Shown: positions 24,201 to 27,999, counted from the stretch's first letter. The stretch: 64,000 nucleotides of DNA from Longimicrobiales bacterium (GCA_965203485.1 OZ241892.1:1536001-1600000), one strand, 5' to 3'. The notes: generated by a model from the sequence alone, not told the origin. Numbers and translations are program-made.

Positions 24201-26750
24201 GTTGTAGTCCGCCTGACGCGTCGAGTCGCCGACCTCCAACGCCAGACGCGGCGTGCCCGCCACGTACACCCCTCGCACGAACGCCACCTCCACCTCGATC
24301 GCCTCGCCCACCAAGTACGTGTCCCCCACCACAGGACGGCTCGTTATCCTCACCCCCTTCACCACCGGCACCGTCCGCGTGTTGCCCGTCACCTTGTGCG
24401 CCGCGCTGTTCGATATCGCGTGAACGCCCAGACCCAGCACCGCGTCCGTCGTCGTCCCCATCCGCCGAATCGCGCTCCCGGACGGGGTCTCCAGCGCGCT
24501 CGCCCCGATGCTGATCCCGTCCGCGTCCGCGTCCGTCTGGAACACCGTGTACTCGAACTCCAACGCCGTCGTACCCGAACCCCTCGCGTACCACGCGTTA
24601 CGCAAGCTCGACCCGATCCCGACACGCACCCGCGGCCTGTTTGCGCCCGTGCCCGTCACCGTCACCGCCGCGCTGAACTCCACCGTCACGACCACCACGT
24701 CGCTCAACTCGAACGTGCTGTCCGCCGGAGCTTCGCCAATCGACACCCCCGTCACCCGCGGCGGGCCCGTGCTGCCGTCCACCTTGTGCGCCGCCGCGTT
24801 CGCAATCGCGTGGCTCCCCAACCCCAGGCTCGCGGGCGTCGCGCCCGGACGCACGTCCGCAATCGTCCCGCCGTTCAGCGTCAACGCGCTCGACCCGATG
24901 CTGATCCCGTCCGTGTCCGCGTCGGCAACATCGACCGGGTACACGAACACCAGCGTGTCCGCCTTGCTCGTCGCCGACCACCACCTCGCCTGCCGCGTCG
25001 CGCTCCCGATCCCCAACGCCAGCTGCGGAGCGCCCGTCACCGACACCGGCCGCGAAAACGCCACCTTCACCCATATCGCTTCGCCGCCCCCGTACGTGCT
25101 TGCGCTCGCCGGCGTGCTCGAGATCGCCACCGCGCTCACCGAAGGCGTCGTGGCCGTGCCCGTTACCTTGTGGTTCGTGCTGTTCGTCACCGCGCTCGAT
25201 CCCAGCCCCAGCGTCGCGTCCGCCGTCTGACCGGCCAGCTTGATCGTCCCGCCGTTCAGCGTCAACGCGCTGGTGCCGACGCTCAATCCGTCCGCGTCCG
25301 CGTCGCCGGTCGCCACCACGTACCGGAACACCAGGGTGTCCGTGCCTGTGCCGCTCGCGTAGCTCGCCTGCCGCGTCGCGCTCCCGATCCCCAGCGCCAG
25401 ACGCGGCGTCCCCGTCACGTCCACCTCTCGGTTGAACACCAACGAGACCTCGATCGTCTCGCCCGGTTCGAAGGTGTCGCCCACCGTGGGCGAGCTGAGC
25501 GTTAGAGCCGTCACCGCCGGCCCCAGGCCGCCGTTCACCTTGTGTGCCGCCGCGTCCGTGACCGCGTGCGAACCCAACCCCAAGTTCGCCGCCACCGAAG
25601 CGTCTCGAGCGTCGTTGATCGTCCCGCCGTTCAGCCCCAGCGCGCTCGACCCGATGCTCAGACCGTTCAAGTCCGCGTCCGCCGCCGCTGTCACGTACCG
25701 GAACGCCAGCGAGGACGTCCCAGTGCCGCTCGCGTAGCTCGCCTGCCGCGTCTGCGTCCCCACCGTCAGCGCCAGCTGCGGAGTGTCCGTCACCGTCACA
25801 TTATGCGTGAACGTCACGGCCACCGCGATCGTGTCGCCCTGCATGTACGTGTCGCCCACGACCGGACTGCTCGACATCGCCACGCCGCTCACCGCCGCCG
25901 CCTCGGCCACCTTGTGCGCCGCAGCATTCGTGATCGCGTGCGTGCCCAGGCTCAACGTCGCGTTCTGCATCGTGCCCGACCGCCGGATCGTTCCGCTGTT
26001 CAGCCCCAGCGCGCTCGACCCGATGCTCAGACCGTCCACGTCCAAGTCCGCAGCCACTACCACGTACCGGAACACCAGCGTGTCCGTCCCAGTGCCGCTC
26101 GCGTAGCTCGCCTGCCGCGTCTGCGCTCCGACCCACAGCGCCAGCTGCGGAGTGCCCGTCACGTCCACCGCCGCGTCGAACACCACCTTCGCCGCGACCG
26201 TGTCCCCAGCGCTGTACGTGCTGTCGGTGCCTGCGTTGCTCGAAATCGCCACCCCGCTGACCGTCGGCGCCGACAACCCCAGGAGGCCGTTCACCTTGTG
26301 TGCCGCGGCATTTGTGATCGCGGTCAAAGTACGGTTAATGTCCAGTCCTGTATTGCTATTCTCAAGATCGTTGTCCAGCGCGTTCGAGGCGATGCTGATC
26401 CCGTCCGCGTCCAGGTCCGCCGCCGCCACGTGGTACCAATACTCCAACCACCTGAACGGGAAACCACTGCGAGGCGGTCTTCCCCCTGGGCAAGTAGTCC
26501 CAGCACAGGCCGTTCTGGTGTTTGCCCCAATCGTCAGACTCAATTCCGATTCGTTGTCGTTAAAGCTCCAGTCGACGCCGACGCTGAACCACAGTCTTAC
26601 CTTGATAGTGTCGCCGAACCGGTACGTGTTGTCCGCCCCCGCCGAGCTGACGATCTTCAGGCTGTCTACCCGACCCTGGGCGCTCAACGAGTCGGCGCCG
26701 AACACCGCCAGCAGGCCTAGGGCCGCGAGCGCGGTTCTGGCTACGGGCAT
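15216..26750 (-). CDS. Giant (3844 aa or more) repetitive adhesin-like surface protein: 21 ~127-aa repeats, 4 cadherin repeats, Ig-like domain, autotransporter-like beta-barrel
   Basis: Signal peptide (..GADSLSA-Q); repeats counted from the translation; cadherin motifs ELAEN/DPDEG/DYE/DVNEAP; barrel segment WTVWGR..LGADY..PYVHW; true start may be ATG 26818. Confidence 0.92.
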   Translation of the reverse strand: MPVARTALAALGLLAVFGADSLSAQGRVDSLKIVSSAGADNTYRFGDTIKVRLWFSVGVDWSFNDNESELSLTIGANTRTACAGTTCPGGRPPRSGFPFRWLEYWYHVAAADLDADGISIASNALDNDLENSNTGLDINRTLTAITNAAAHKVNGLLGLSAPTVSGVAISSNAGTDSTYSAGDTVAAKVVFDAAVDVTGTPQLALWVGAQTRQASYASGTGTDTLVFRYVVVAADLDVDGLSIGSSALGLNSGTIRRSGTMQNATLSLGTHAITNAAAHKVAEAAAVSGVAMSSSPVVGDTYMQGDTIAVAVTFTHNVTVTDTPQLALTVGTQTRQASYASGTGTSSLAFRYVTAAADADLNGLSIGSSALGLNGGTINDARDASVAANLGLGSHAVTDAAAHKVNGGLGPAVTALTLSSPTVGDTFEPGETIEVSLVFNREVDVTGTPRLALGIGSATRQASYASGTGTDTLVFRYVVATGDADADGLSVGTSALTLNGGTIKLAGQTADATLGLGSSAVTNSTNHKVTGTATTPSVSAVAISSTPASASTYGGGEAIWVKVAFSRPVSVTGAPQLALGIGSATRQARWWSATSKADTLVFVYPVDVADADTDGISIGSSALTLNGGTIADVRPGATPASLGLGSHAIANAAAHKVDGSTGPPRVTGVSIGEAPADSTFELSDVVVVTVEFSAAVTVTGTGANRPRVRVGIGSSLRNAWYARGSGTTALEFEYTVFQTDADADGISIGASALETPSGSAIRRMGTTTDAVLGLGVHAISNSAAHKVTGNTRTVPVVKGVRITSRPVVGDTYLVGEAIEVEVAFVRGVYVAGTPRLALEVGDSTRQADYNRRDATFSRVTFRYVVQATDADADGISVGAGALAASASDTIADGRLWSDAADLALGSHVFTNAGAHKVAGDVPHVTSAFFLTPSNTGLAYASTDSVFGLGDEIRVGVGFNAGVTATGTPRLALGIGSQTRSAAQCDAVTSGNIVVFCYTVVAADADTTGISIGANALTLPGGATIRAAGAATDARLSLAQWSFADAVEYQVDGTKEVAPGVAGVAITSAPASDSTYGRTEAIEVEVEFERAVAVTGTPQLALGIDTLTRQAGYASGSGTRTLVFRYVVAAADADTSGISVGASALALNGGTIVLSGGTAAAALGLGSHAVANARSHKVDGSLGSPGVTGLSIGSPAVGDVFERGETIEVSVVFHRAVDVGGTPQLALGIGSATRQAEYASGTGTDTLVFGYVVAVGDADADGLSIAAGALTLNGGTIRLAGGTLDATLDLGSHAVANSAGHKVTGAFVASAVSGVTVSSAPASASTYELGESIEVKVAFTRDVAVTGTPRLALGIGTVTRQADYDSGSSSADTLVFGYAVRPADADADGLSIAAGALGLNGGTINDARPGIGAASLDLGSNAIANAAAHKVNGGLGPPGVTGLAVAPPPAGAVFERGDTIVATVRFNKAVDVTGTPQLALGIGAQTRQAAYASGTGTAALVFRYVVATADVDADGLSVGASALALNSGTIDVSGGTTDALLSLERHAFENFLVVNGGLFTASSVSGVSISSSPASDSTYGRTERIEVEVTFARAVTVTGTPQLALTIGDSTRQASYASGSGTKTLAFGYVVVAADADANGLSIGPAALALNGGAIDDARDASEAAGLGLGSHAISNAAAHKVNGSLGPPGVTGVTLGSPPVGTTFERGDTIVATLAFNRAVAVTGAPQLALGIGSATKQAVYASGSGTSSLEFRYVVVTADVDADGLSVATTALGLNGGTVRLAGGTLDATLGLGTHAISNSAGHKVAGGTFTASGVTGVAVASSPASGATYGLGERIEVRVTFARAVAVTGTPQLALSFGAATRQADYAGGTGTKTLAFGYVVVAGDADSDGLSIGASALALNGGAIADGRDGSTAAALGLGSSAVADAGGHRVDATRGPPGVMGVTIGSPQVGDTFERGDTVEVEVEFNKAVAVTGAPQLALGIGAATKQAGYAGGSGTAALAFRYVVVSADADADGLSVAAGALALNGGTIKVSGGTADALLGLGAHAVANSGGHKVAGGTFTASSPSAASVTSAPASGDTYGLGERIEVRVTFARPVVVTGAPQLALGIGSATKQAGYAGGSGTRALVFGYVVASADADADGISVGASALSLNGGAIADARDGATAAGLGLGSSAIANAGAHKVDGSVEGAPAVAGARLASAPSRGGSYGLGEEIRVAVRFDRAVAVTGTPELALGIGAATRQAGYASGSGTSELEFAYVVQAADADRDGISVGAGALSLSGGTLVVAGGTAAAVLSLGSHAIVNASGHAVAGTLEAAPVVTGARLVSSPANGSAYGLSERIAVALAFSRPVDVAGAPQLALGIGSATRQAGYASGSGTAELVFGYVVAGADADADGVSVAAAALSLNGGTIMIAGGRVAAVLSLGTHALSNVAGHLVDGSAETAPAVAGVTLASAPIGGGRYELGEEIRVHVRFDRAVAVTGSPQLALTIGAQTRAARFVRVVGYAAAARAGWVGGAAGSGSAGWAGVAAGYAGAGWDGGSAGSGARAGALGATQGAALEFAYAVQASDADADGISVGAGALSLNGGAITLLGGTAAAGLSLGGHALTNVGGHLVDGSVVSPPAVAGVEAGRPPSGGRWRAGQTIEIAVVFDRPVSVTGGPRLALAMGTRTVHAALASASGRRVEFAYEVRPHDRAPNGIALAAGALDASGAAIVSAADGSTPAALSLGSHAFASDPTRRVEGGGGEPEPGRPPKFGAESYAFELAENVAGAVVVGAVSAVDPDEGDEVYYRLREGGGGLFEVGETSGEVSYVGAGEDYEAGPREHALVVSAADVGGLASTVRVTVKVTNANEAPAFERASWTFELAENAAGPIVLGTVSATDPDEGEALSYSLVSGGGGLFELDAASGAVRYVGAGEDYETGPREHALAVAVADAGGLRAAAGVVVAVADADEAPVFEQASWTFELAENAAGPIVLGTVSATDPDEGEALSYSLVSGGGGLFELDVASGAISYVGVGEDYETGPREHALVVAATGADGLAAQAAVVVVVADVNEAPVFEQASWTFELAENAAGPLAVGAVAAADEDEGDVLSYSLVSGGGGLFELDASSGAVRYVGAGEDYETGPREHALVVAATDRGGLAATANATVVVTDVNEAPEATAQIAVAALDAHGAAVQETLDAYFRDPDGDALAYAAESSDTAVAAASVAGGVLTIQPFAIGTASVTVTATDPGGLAAEQTVAVVVEASRSERARVLEGALAAFGRSVGAEAVDVIGGRLGIESAGGLGRSHLQLGGRAVGCDGGFAQRAEDRVGAAGAGAETGDRACGWQALARAASGLLGVQVALPSAGGLGGAQSAGALDPAALLFGGPGAGAGGFGGPAGAAAGLGAVGDYRGQQEPAAAAPGGVTFNPLSGGDLLERSSFQLSLGGGAASDSGAFGAQDAAGLRPGWTVWGRAGMGGYEGRPADGLRFDGGRARSAHLGADYRFASGLLVGVAGARSSFETEFESAVNGAGSVAASLTSVHPYVHWSPTGGLGLWALAGAGTGDATLEETAGGRFGADIAMLMGALGARRELAGGIALKADAFSVRVRSDDAADLAGVTARAHRVRLAPEVAKTWALGGEASLRTRLELGARLDAGDAETGLGAEAGGEASFDHAPTGLSVAMRGRALLAHQAEGLREWGAGVSLRLQPGGGAEDGLLLSVEPTWGTGAGVTGELWRQGAAALEPAVQTAQTAPTAAPSGWAPGRMAMELGWGVALDNGATITPFGRWSQDAGAGQRFNAGARFSLLGKSAQSGTAAHSPAAESLRFLLHLYGEHASSPLEPPQRRLGLAGAIRIR
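17270..18486 (-). repeat. Four tandem 303-bp cadherin-domain repeats, copies 2-4 highly similar at DNA level
   Basis: Period of 303 nt (EAP at ~17270, 17573, 17876, 18179); shared TFELAENAAGP, LSYSLVSGGGGLFEL, EDYETGPREHAL. Confidence 0.93.
18500..26680 (-). repeat. Array of 21 imperfect ~380-bp (~127-aa) intragenic repeats
   Basis: Recurring V.GV.I.S.P...TY..GE.I.V.V.F...V.VTG.PQLALGIG..TRQA.YASGSGT..L.F.YVV...DADADG.S....L.LNGG.I....L.LGSHA..N...HKV.G. Confidence 0.95.
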
Positions 26751-26789
26751 TGCGCGGACCCAGAATGCTCGGGCTGGGCGGCCGCAAAC

Positions 26790-26815
26790 GGGGGGGGGGG
26801 GGGGGGGGGGGGGGG
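26790..26815. repeat. G26 homopolymer (C26 on the adhesin coding strand), candidate phase-variation tract
   Basis: Directly visible; immediately follows the minus-strand ATG at 26818-26816. Confidence 0.9.
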
Positions 26816-26882
26816 CATGTCGGGGCTCGCCCTTTGTCGGCGTCGCGCCTCGTGACGCGCGTGGCCAGGTTCGGAACTTCAG

Positions 26883-27328
26883 CCCGTCTTGTTCACGAGG
26901 GGGGGCGTGGTGAAGGGGTGGCGTGCGGCGGCGAGGCCAGTAGGTTCAAGGTGTTCGGGCCGAGAACCGGCGGCCCGCCGCGCGCAACGCCGAGGTGAAG
27001 ATAACGGAGGGGCGAGCTGAAGAGCGTCGTGGACCTGGCGCTGTCGTCGTCGCCCCGGCCCAACCGCCGCTGCCGGGGTCGGGACGCGCGGCCCGAGCGC
27101 CGGCTCGTCGCGCTGTTCGGCTACCAGATCATGCACGTGCTGCGCAACCTGCTCGAACGCGCCACCAAGACCGGCTGGAGCCTGCGCCGGCTGCTCGAGC
27201 GCGTGCTGCGAGCGCCCGCCCGGGTCACCGTATCCGGACGCCGCGTCACGACCGTCGTCGGCCGCTCCGCCGCGCACTGGACGCTGGCCGCCCGCCAGCT
27301 GGCGCTGCTGCCCGACCCGGGCGGCTAA
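26883..27328 (+). mobile_element. Internally deleted IS1380-family-like remnant (putative left end plus transposase C-terminal fragment 27011-27328)
   Basis: GELKSVVDLALSSSPRP..GYQIMHVLRNLLERAT.TGWSLRRL.ERVLRAPARV..SGRRVT resembles IS1380-type transposase C-termini; in-frame TAA at 27002; CCCGTCTTGTTCAC at 26883 is terminal-IR-like (from recall, unverified). Confidence 0.7.
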
Positions 27329-27999
27329 CGCCACCAGCCGGCAACCGTCCCCGTTCCCGCTTCACGGTCCGGCCCTCCCAGATCGTGCGCATGGTCGCGC
27401 CGCCCTTGGTGGAAGACGACATGGAGCAACGCGCCCGCGACGAAGGCTTGGTAGAGAGTCGCGCCGGGTCCGTCCGCAATGGGCCCAAGCGCCTCGGAGC
27501 CCAGCGCGTAGCCCGCCATCGTCGCGGCGCACAAGAAGCCGACCGCGAGCCACACGGCGAGGGGCCCGTGTCGGGGCCTGAGAAGCCACCAAATGACCGA
27601 GCCCACGAGCAACCGGTGGAGCGCCACGGCCATGATCAGCGGGTCGCCGAGTCCCGCTTCGCTTCGAGTGGCCAGCGCGGCGCCCTCCAGCAGAACGTGA
27701 ACGGCGGCGCCCGAGGCTCCCACCAGGACGGCCACGTCGTCCGTGCGCGGCGACCGAGCGCGAAAGATGCGCTCTGCGGCCCAGACCACCAGCGAGCCTG
27801 CTGCGACCGCCAGCACAGGCAGGGGGTCGCGCTCGCGCCACGCCGCGGGAAGCACGTACCAAGCCACGAGGCCCGGAAAGGCTATGTAGATGAAGTTGTC
27901 GACGCTTCGCGTCAAGCGCGGATGCTCGTGCAACCAACTGTACAGCAAGACCCCCGCCGCGGGCGCCGCGACCGCAACGGCCAAACCCGTGGACATCAT
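27325..27999 (-). CDS. Membrane protein, ZIP-like metal transporter domain
   Basis: About 7 hydrophobic segments; HVLLEG and VALHR motifs, His-rich tail HVVFH..HAH; GAGGAGG RBS. Confidence 0.7.
   Translation of the reverse strand: MMSTGLAVAVAAPAAGVLLYSWLHEHPRLTRSVDNFIYIAFPGLVAWYVLPAAWRERDPLPVLAVAAGSLVVWAAERIFRARSPRTDDVAVLVGASGAAVHVLLEGAALATRSEAGLGDPLIMAVALHRLLVGSVIWWLLRPRHGPLAVWLAVGFLCAATMAGYALGSEALGPIADGPGATLYQAFVAGALLHVVFHQGRRDHAHDLGGPDREAGTGTVAGWWR

Follow-up and report, generated by a model that had tools for sequence, protein, structure and literature searches.

Phase variation by simple sequence repeats has been described mostly in pathogens and mucosal commensals. The closest described systems are the autotransporters NalP and MspA of Neisseria meningitidis, which are ON at 7, 10, and 13 C and at 6, 9, and 12 C, respectively (PMC3723659). 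The locus analyzed here is a run of 26 C (C26) at the 5' end of a putative giant surface protein's gene, located on the minus strand of a 64-kb stretch of DNA (64,000 nucleotides, GCA_965203485.1 OZ241892.1:1536001-1600000, this whole stretch being called the window below). The genome in question (G000) consists of one contig of 3.56 Mb with 69% GC and, judging from its best ScpB matches, which are Longimicrobiales and Gemmatimonadota genomes, is that of an uncultured bacterium of the Gemmatimonadota, order Longimicrobiales. As reported for nalP and mspA, a poly-C tract is found in the coding sequence of an autotransporter-like protein and the frame depends on its length modulo 3. Unlike those tracts, the present one measures 26 nt (12-39 nt in relatives) and directly follows the start codon, with a second ATG and the whole hydrophobic (h-) region of the signal peptide remaining downstream; in addition, about ten paralogues of 2,000-13,000 aa per genome appear to be gated in this way in a Gemmatimonadota background of 69% GC.

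In Campylobacter jejuni, which is devoid of mismatch repair, dozens of G/C tracts per genome are described, tracts of more than 7 G being classed as hypermutable and surface-structure genes being targeted (PMC4235727). The genomes studied here likewise carry dozens of G/C tracts with surface-structure targets; unlike in the description of C. jejuni, MutS and MutL are present and the tracts, which are far above 7 nt, are mostly sense-strand C at 5' ends. With its 26 C, the focal tract falls among the G/C homopolymers of more than 7 nt associated with simple-repeat translational phase variation. The 5' repeats of Haemophilus lic1A and lic2A are accompanied by several initiation codons. The present locus is similar in that more than one start codon lies near the repeat, so that more than two levels are possible, but in those genes the starts are upstream of the repeat and in different frames, whereas here the second start is downstream and would be used via reinitiation. 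PMC4235727 mentions 5' repeats with several initiation codons, and the graded expression they give, as exceptional. Poly-C or poly-G tracts are also on record in phase-variable methyltransferases, including type III Mod (PMC3711429), and the genomes analyzed here hold internal tracts in Mod, Eco57I-type, and Mrr-helicase-methyltransferase genes, the focal locus not being one of them. Unlike in promoter-tract phase variation of the porA/opc type, no sigma-70 boxes were found near the focal tract in a search of 26700-27400 for this factor only; a tract in the spacer between -35 and -10 boxes does occur at one paralogue (L221).

The proposed mechanism is a known one; the novelty lies in the phylum, the tract length in the presence of mismatch repair, the position directly after the start codon with a retained inner ATG, and the use across multigene families. 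The original prediction, which was aware of no such locus in this kind of organism, agrees with the literature in this respect: no report of such tracts in Gemmatimonadota was found in a search outside which most subscription papers fell, and none of the papers naming both the topic and the phylum dealt with such tracts, judged by their title or the start of their abstract.

Reading frames and start codons at the focal locus

The elements on the minus strand are, in order, a Shine-Dalgarno (SD)-like AAAGGG (26835-26830), which lies 11 nt 5' of an upstream ATG (26818-26816), the 26 C (26815-26790), 39 nt corresponding to a 13-codon leader, VCGRPARAFWVRA (26789-26751), and an inner ATG (26750-26748), from which an open reading frame (ORF) of 3,844 aa beginning MPVART runs to 15216. 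The tract, which is the sole C/G run exceeding 8 nt in the window, sets the frame and is read as poly-Pro. At C26, ATG 26818 is out of frame with the ORF and yields a 25-aa peptide, MPPPPPPPPPFAAAQPEHSGSAQCP (26818-26741), which stops at TAG 26743-26741, 7 nt into the inner ATG. At C21, C24, C27, and C30, the frame of the same ATG leads into the ORF without any stop, giving M(P)nVCGRPARAFWVRAMPVART, while in the third frame (C25 or C28), 75 codons follow the tract before a stop at 26562-26560. The out-of-frame peptide and the stop-free reading at C24 and C27 had both been predicted, and frame reading bears them out. The tract lies in the sequence that would be translated from ATG 26818 and sets its frame.

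We consider it probable that slipped-strand frameshifting, as in NalP and MspA, switches this gene on and off, with ATG 26818 as the translation start and the full protein produced at lengths giving the adhesin frame (3n). Slippage during replication would add or remove C's, presumably often; 3n lengths such as C24 and C27 would give the full surface protein, its signal peptide being extended to about 47 aa by a poly-Pro start, and other lengths, including C26, would give short peptides and little or no giant protein.

The leader carries a signal of selection. Its last 12 codons, which read CGRPARAFWVRA in G000 and CDRPARAFWTHA and CGRLARAFWARA in two paralogues of the related genome G064, are kept in the adhesin frame as CxRxARAFWxxA. 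When the G000 leader is compared with the two others, the ratios of synonymous to non-synonymous codons are 6:3 and 5:2 in the adhesin frame vs 1:8, 1:7, 0:6, and 1:6 in the other frames, and the variable columns are distributed 1/4/9 over the three codon positions (P=0.017). Because the leader is conserved synonymously in the adhesin frame, ATG 26818 is very likely the true start and the in-frame lengths are very likely ON. Three of the 59 database homologues (P0027, P0029, and P0043) start with M..PPPPPP(P) in frame, and the N-terminus of P0029 continues as GPARFWTHA-MPVART; together with the synonymous leader, these N-termini support the extended n-region which had been proposed to result from ATG 26818. 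The peptide encoded in the C26 frame was also considered as a conserved product on account of its likeness to paralogue 1250183, but this candidate failed, a hand count showing no third-position bias and the codon ratios being 1:8 and 0:6.

The SD pairing energy is -4.9 kcal/mol at ATG 26818 and -3.1 at ATG 26750, the median being -4.3 among 1,002 starts called with a simple gene caller. The original prediction saw no obvious SD at ATG 26750; it does have a weak one, and 38% of the 1,002 starts are weaker. No other open start codon is present in the 70 nt before the tract. The inner ATG is located within a predicted stem-loop (26773-26723), folding of the leader does not exceed that of shuffled sequences (z=-1.1), and no Rfam family matched the locus. 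A search for sigma-70 sites between 26700 and 27400, which covered this factor only, gave none.

The protein itself contains repeats of about 125 aa (17 of which match a simple motif), four cadherin domains, a Big_9-like domain, and a C-terminal autotransporter-like beta domain (16400-15219). The h- and c-region of a putative signal peptide (26750-26679), ending SLSA/Q, was recognized by eye. The clusters nearest to the last 394 aa in the ESM Atlas are autotransporter beta-domains (0.97), with PF03797 on 33-100% of the cluster members; the Pfam and NCBIfam scans of this domain gave no autotransporter (PF03797) match, and the single-sequence AlphaFold model of the C-terminus was unusable (predicted local distance difference test, pLDDT, 36.5). 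A terminal aromatic residue of the beta-signal is a feature of classical (type Va) autotransporters; the giant protein ends in GAIRIR and lacks it. The name adhesin, used here for convenience, is suggested by the domains. The cadherin domains, the signal-like N-terminus, and the autotransporter-like C-terminus place the predicted product in the surface-exposed class.

Further upstream, the stretch 26874-26816 is about 80% homologous to the sequence 5' of the C18 and C20 tracts of the G000 paralogues 735029 and 711833. It is preceded by a repeated element of about 135 nt (26877-27013, 77-93% identity), which also occurs 5' of six to seven other G000 genes, several with signal-like N-termini.

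Long C tracts in paralogues and related genomes

With 42 tracts of this kind in G000, the focal locus is nothing exceptional. The lengths of the C/G runs in this genome are bimodally distributed, with 28 runs of 8 nt, 13 of 9, two of 10, two of 11, none of 12-13, and 42 of 14-30 nt, vs about 0.003 expected in the latter range by geometric extrapolation. In related genomes, runs of at least 12 nt number 42 in G001, 11 in G002, 27 in G064, 46 in G105, six in G130, 19 in G005, seven in G007, and three in G011; the 35 in G006 are located in many cases at the contig ends of a fragmented assembly. None occur in G088 and G116, two members of this family whose assemblies comprise one or a few contigs. 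At least 20 of the 201 genomes screened match the tract pattern (17/112 in the family and 2/88 outside), counts which are a lower bound, as the screen catches runs up to about 19 nt only and misses the focal tract.

Among the 13 long G000 genes sharing this C-terminal domain, nine have a tract at most 335 nt from the inner start, whereas the remaining 33 tracts of the genome are distributed over some 2,345 called genes (P=5e-14). A 5' tract was also found in 6/12 family genes of G001 (two more having C11 and C10), 1/4 of G002, 0/1 of G007, 10/15 of G105, 10/14 of G064, and 1/6 of G130, so that the search for such tracts in paralogous adhesins and related genomes, which had been proposed as a check, gave a positive answer. 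The largest member, of about 13,400 aa (G000:C1:2971339-3011577), has as its gate a G22 on the sense strand. The same layout recurs in paralogues of five genomes, and four relatives belonging to two genera resemble G000 in having tracts at giant genes, restriction-modification genes, and peptide-precursor copies. The 95 tracts of G000-G002 have AT-rich flanks (AAT-Cn-GTTT), with 51-57% GC within 10 nt vs 67% further out, which is not the case of short runs; T amounts to 39-46% at positions +2 to +6 vs 11-17% for short runs.

The position of start codons points in the same direction as the leader. Of these 95 tracts, 18 have an ATG within the 10 nt preceding the C-run, vs 3/95 on the G strand and 70 of the 1,088 short runs; in the genus designated g61, this applies to 28 of the 73 tracts examined vs seven on the G strand, both counts being inflated by paralogous copies. 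In an independent genus, the adhesin frame is open from the tract to the inner start in all 11 leader groups (7.8 expected, P=0.014). Seven G001 paralogues show by eye a conserved sigma-70-like promoter 70-90 nt upstream, followed by an SD, a GTG or ATG, and the tract, which places the tract in the mRNA. In 22 peptide-precursor copies (six in G000 and 16 in G105), the layout is unambiguous, an SD and ATG directly preceding the tract.

Tract length varies between copies. Near-identical copies differ as C18/C14 (flanks 100% identical), C20/C15/C23 (98-99%), and C20/C18 (95%), and orthologous tracts differ between species as 22/16, 25/27, 17/14, and 16/13/21. A general under-call of tract length by assemblies was considered and is unsupported, since in-frame, short, and long states all occur. 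Leader conservation, poly-Pro homologues, the layout of paralogues, and the length differences between copies all speak for the contingency locus originally proposed.

At the focal locus, the gene-side contig extends 22-24 letters beyond the unique flank into the tract position in 4/4 sequencing runs, as inferred from record offsets, and the upstream contig does likewise in 3/4; these runs represent at most two samples from one study, perhaps the source of the assembly. Such contig ends are compatible with a real run whose length is mixed or prone to error, and since contigs enter the tract position from both sides, C26 is not a poly-G end artefact; a poly-G sequencing or assembly artefact had been named by the original prediction as a possible refutation. 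The 26-mer is probably mixed in the population. Around the locus, a different allele with insertions of 8 and 28 nt was present in run X2 (27010-27184), and a minor variant with 9-11 changes in runs X2-X4 (26495-26562), either of which may reflect strain variation or a paralogue. The syntenic site is uninformative, the neighbors of the ZIP-like gene being different ones in G001 and G002 as far as the 1.5-kb flanks extend.

Other tracts are located in or before restriction-modification, priming sugar transferase, GDSL-like, arylsulfotransferase, and TonB-dependent receptor genes. Those inside the Eco57I-type, Mod, and Mrr-helicase-methyltransferase genes are in frame in some cases and shifted in others. 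Tracts within restriction-modification-type genes are found in mixed frame states in G000 at 319758, 624966, 2029191, 2166441, and 3323431 (shifted in the last case) and at L024, L047, L065, L254, L261, L262, L272, L284, and L286, the Pfam scan having covered the G000 genes only. These mixed states suggest phase-variable methylation. Three species (G000 811424, L034, and L049) share an orthologous tract (C27/C23/C16) where a gene for a priming sugar transferase (PF02397) begins, and in G001 an ATG directly precedes the run.

Several observations weigh against a frameshift switch starting at the upstream ATG. The synonymous test has a small basis (12 codons and three sequences), and the two G064 leaders compared with each other give a weaker ratio (3:4). 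At the focal locus, finding all three frames open between the tract and the inner ATG is expected by chance (null 0.94), and in G000-G002 the adhesin frame is open in 9/12 leader groups (7.3 expected, P=0.22). The inner ATG is retained in most paralogues, and the leader frame is shifted between some of them (1188594 vs L246, and the focal gene vs 1250183). At G000 1062050 and 2790494 and at G001 L075, a stop between the tract and the gene closes the adhesin frame, so that no switching by fusion can take place there; at 1062050, the ATG preceding the tract shares nucleotides with the stop codon of the gene upstream, presumably rpmA. Some tracts look like promoter elements, such as the G14 within the spacer of TTGACT-N18-TATAAT at L221 in G105, and the Cn directly preceding TTGACA at G000 2790494, L075, L249, and L280, in four genomes. 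No other allele or strain of the focal locus was found in the metagenome scans.

Tracts also precede the housekeeping genes mutS and rpsA, the latter being a C19 located 90 nt upstream (G000 1037531). MutS and MutL were each found in 5/5 genomes tested, although the open frame of mutS is shorter in G001 (644 aa), and their presence should damp slippage; a mismatch-repair defect as the cause of the long tracts is accordingly unsupported. In G000, a C20 (G000:C1:2516940-2516959; L094, L292) abuts a promoter-like site, TTGGAC-N18-TATTCT, 82 nt 5' of mutS; it is absent at mutS in 4/4 relatives and could tune the mutation rate.

Alternative readings of the tract

The alternative that survives best is a refinement of the frameshift switch into three states, in which 3n lengths would give high expression, C26-type lengths an intermediate level via reinitiation at ATG 26750, and only C25 or C28 would be off. 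We regard it as possible, if doubtful. It bears on the original description of the locus as captured in the OFF frame, which holds for the assembled sequence (its length may be a base off); as for expression, C26 may leak rather than be OFF, because its peptide stops 7 nt into ATG 26750. Reinitiation is plausible at this distance. A distance of 10 nt is used as a criterion for translational coupling in PMC3711429. In 30 of the 36 tract loci, the C26-type frame ends at a stop located at -2 to +7 nt relative to the inner start, vs 11 of the 20 tract-less ones (P=0.03); however, 15 of these 36 loci are one family, and among the 1,002 ordinary ATG starts, 46% are accompanied by a stop of this kind, since the genetic code itself produces ATGA and TGATG. 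For overlap phase, PMC2542354 argues in favor of a null based on composition.

The distribution of states also favors this refinement. The 30 adhesin loci with a clear start comprise 10 in frame, 16 one base short, as at the focal locus, and four one base long, in a tally made by hand from which ambiguous loci or loci without a near start were left out (G000 3011519, 711833, 735029, and 2790494, and L075, L219, L221, L242, L248, and L283). The peptide precursors comprise six in frame, two short, and 13 long (one left out), and the short:long ratios differ between the two families (16:4 vs 2:13, P=1.3e-4), as they do within G105 alone (7:0 vs 2:11, P=4.6e-4). A bias common to the assemblies would not produce such a difference between gene families; without G105, however, the adhesin skew falls to 9:4 (P=0.27). 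Early closure of the third frame is commoner than in shuffled sequences, this frame being open in 3/12 (7.4 expected) and 5/11 (7.8 expected), whereas the openness of the C26-type frame is at chance (9/12, P=0.24; 8/11, P=0.52) and the out-of-frame peptide is not conserved. At paralogue 1062050, the fusion frame is closed and the C26-type frame is open for 72 codons. In 13/13 loci, accessibility is lower at the inner start than at the upstream one. As C-runs have no structure, part of this difference is trivial, and the focal inner ATG ranks as average, 40% of starts being more closed.

The transcription or mRNA fate of the gene might instead be tuned by the length of a tract lying in the leader or promoter, ATG 26750 being the sole real start. 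The conservation of this ATG and its weak SD are compatible with such tuning, as are the promoter-type tracts of these genomes (L221 and the Cn-TTGACA loci) and the paralogues 711833 and 735029, which share the upstream stretch but have AAT instead of ATG before the tract. Synonymous conservation 5' of the inner ATG, the lack of a sigma-70 site in 26700-27400, and the location of the G001 promoter well upstream of the tract argue against it, and we hold it to be unlikely. Slippage of RNA polymerase or of the ribosome on the C-run, giving a constant in-frame share from one DNA allele and no heritable switch, would find a suitable substrate in a 26-nt homopolymer followed by GTTT, with T-rich tract flanks in G000, G001, and G002. 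Transcriptional slippage has mostly been described on A/T runs, and DNA lengths differ between copies and between orthologues, which makes this mechanism quite improbable here. Lastly, an origin of the long runs by neutral expansion, or as artefacts of sequencing or assembly, with a chance relation to the frame is very improbable, since, even if some tracts are intergenic or 5' of housekeeping genes, many G006 runs lie at contig ends, and assembled lengths are perhaps 1-2 bases off, the family genes carry the tract in nine cases out of 13, orthologous positions are kept between species, G088 and G116 have no tracts, and the in-frame, short, and long states reveal no general under-call.

Predicted surface variation and peptide-precursor arrays

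If the frameshift switch operates from ATG 26818, the cells of a population would form a mosaic, displaying different sets of giant surface proteins, given that nine of the 13 paralogues carry a tract. A broader and more speculative proposal is that SD-ATG-(C)12-36 is a portable cassette acting as a three-position dial on multigene families, namely about ten giant adhesins and up to 16 precursors with variable cores per genome. From their leader motifs, we take these precursors to be similar to those of ribosomally synthesized and post-translationally modified peptides (RiPPs).

Six tandem units of about 925 nt in G000 (L092, G000:C1:2327700-2332700) each consist of SD-ATG-(CT)n-C24-27 and a RiPP-like precursor of 60-70 aa with an RRPWTPPKL leader and a variable, Cys-flanked core. 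Neighboring genes encode HprK-like kinases, a sulfotransferase, and a P450. The frame is kept in three of the units, two are one base long, and one has a second frameshift. In G105, sixteen dispersed precursors preceded by SD-ATG-C14-22 (L250, L259, L264-L266, L268-L270, and L275) have RRPWAAPRL or LKPWVPPRL leaders and Cys-rich cores, with three in frame, two short, and 11 long. No phase-variable RiPP precursors were found in the literature, most subscription papers lying outside the search, and such arrays would be new if confirmed.

Gene callers hide the putative switch, as all adhesins appear intact when called from the inner ATG, and assemblies of short reads are interrupted at the tracts; with long reads, ON and OFF states could be read directly from such samples. 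That G000, G001, G064, and G105 each carry 27-46 very long tracts in the same classes of genes suggests that the cell surface is under strong, fluctuating selection exerted by a host, by predators, or by phage. If the three-position cassette holds true, it would allow the combinatorial display of surface proteins and natural-product precursors in uncultured bacteria proficient in mismatch repair.

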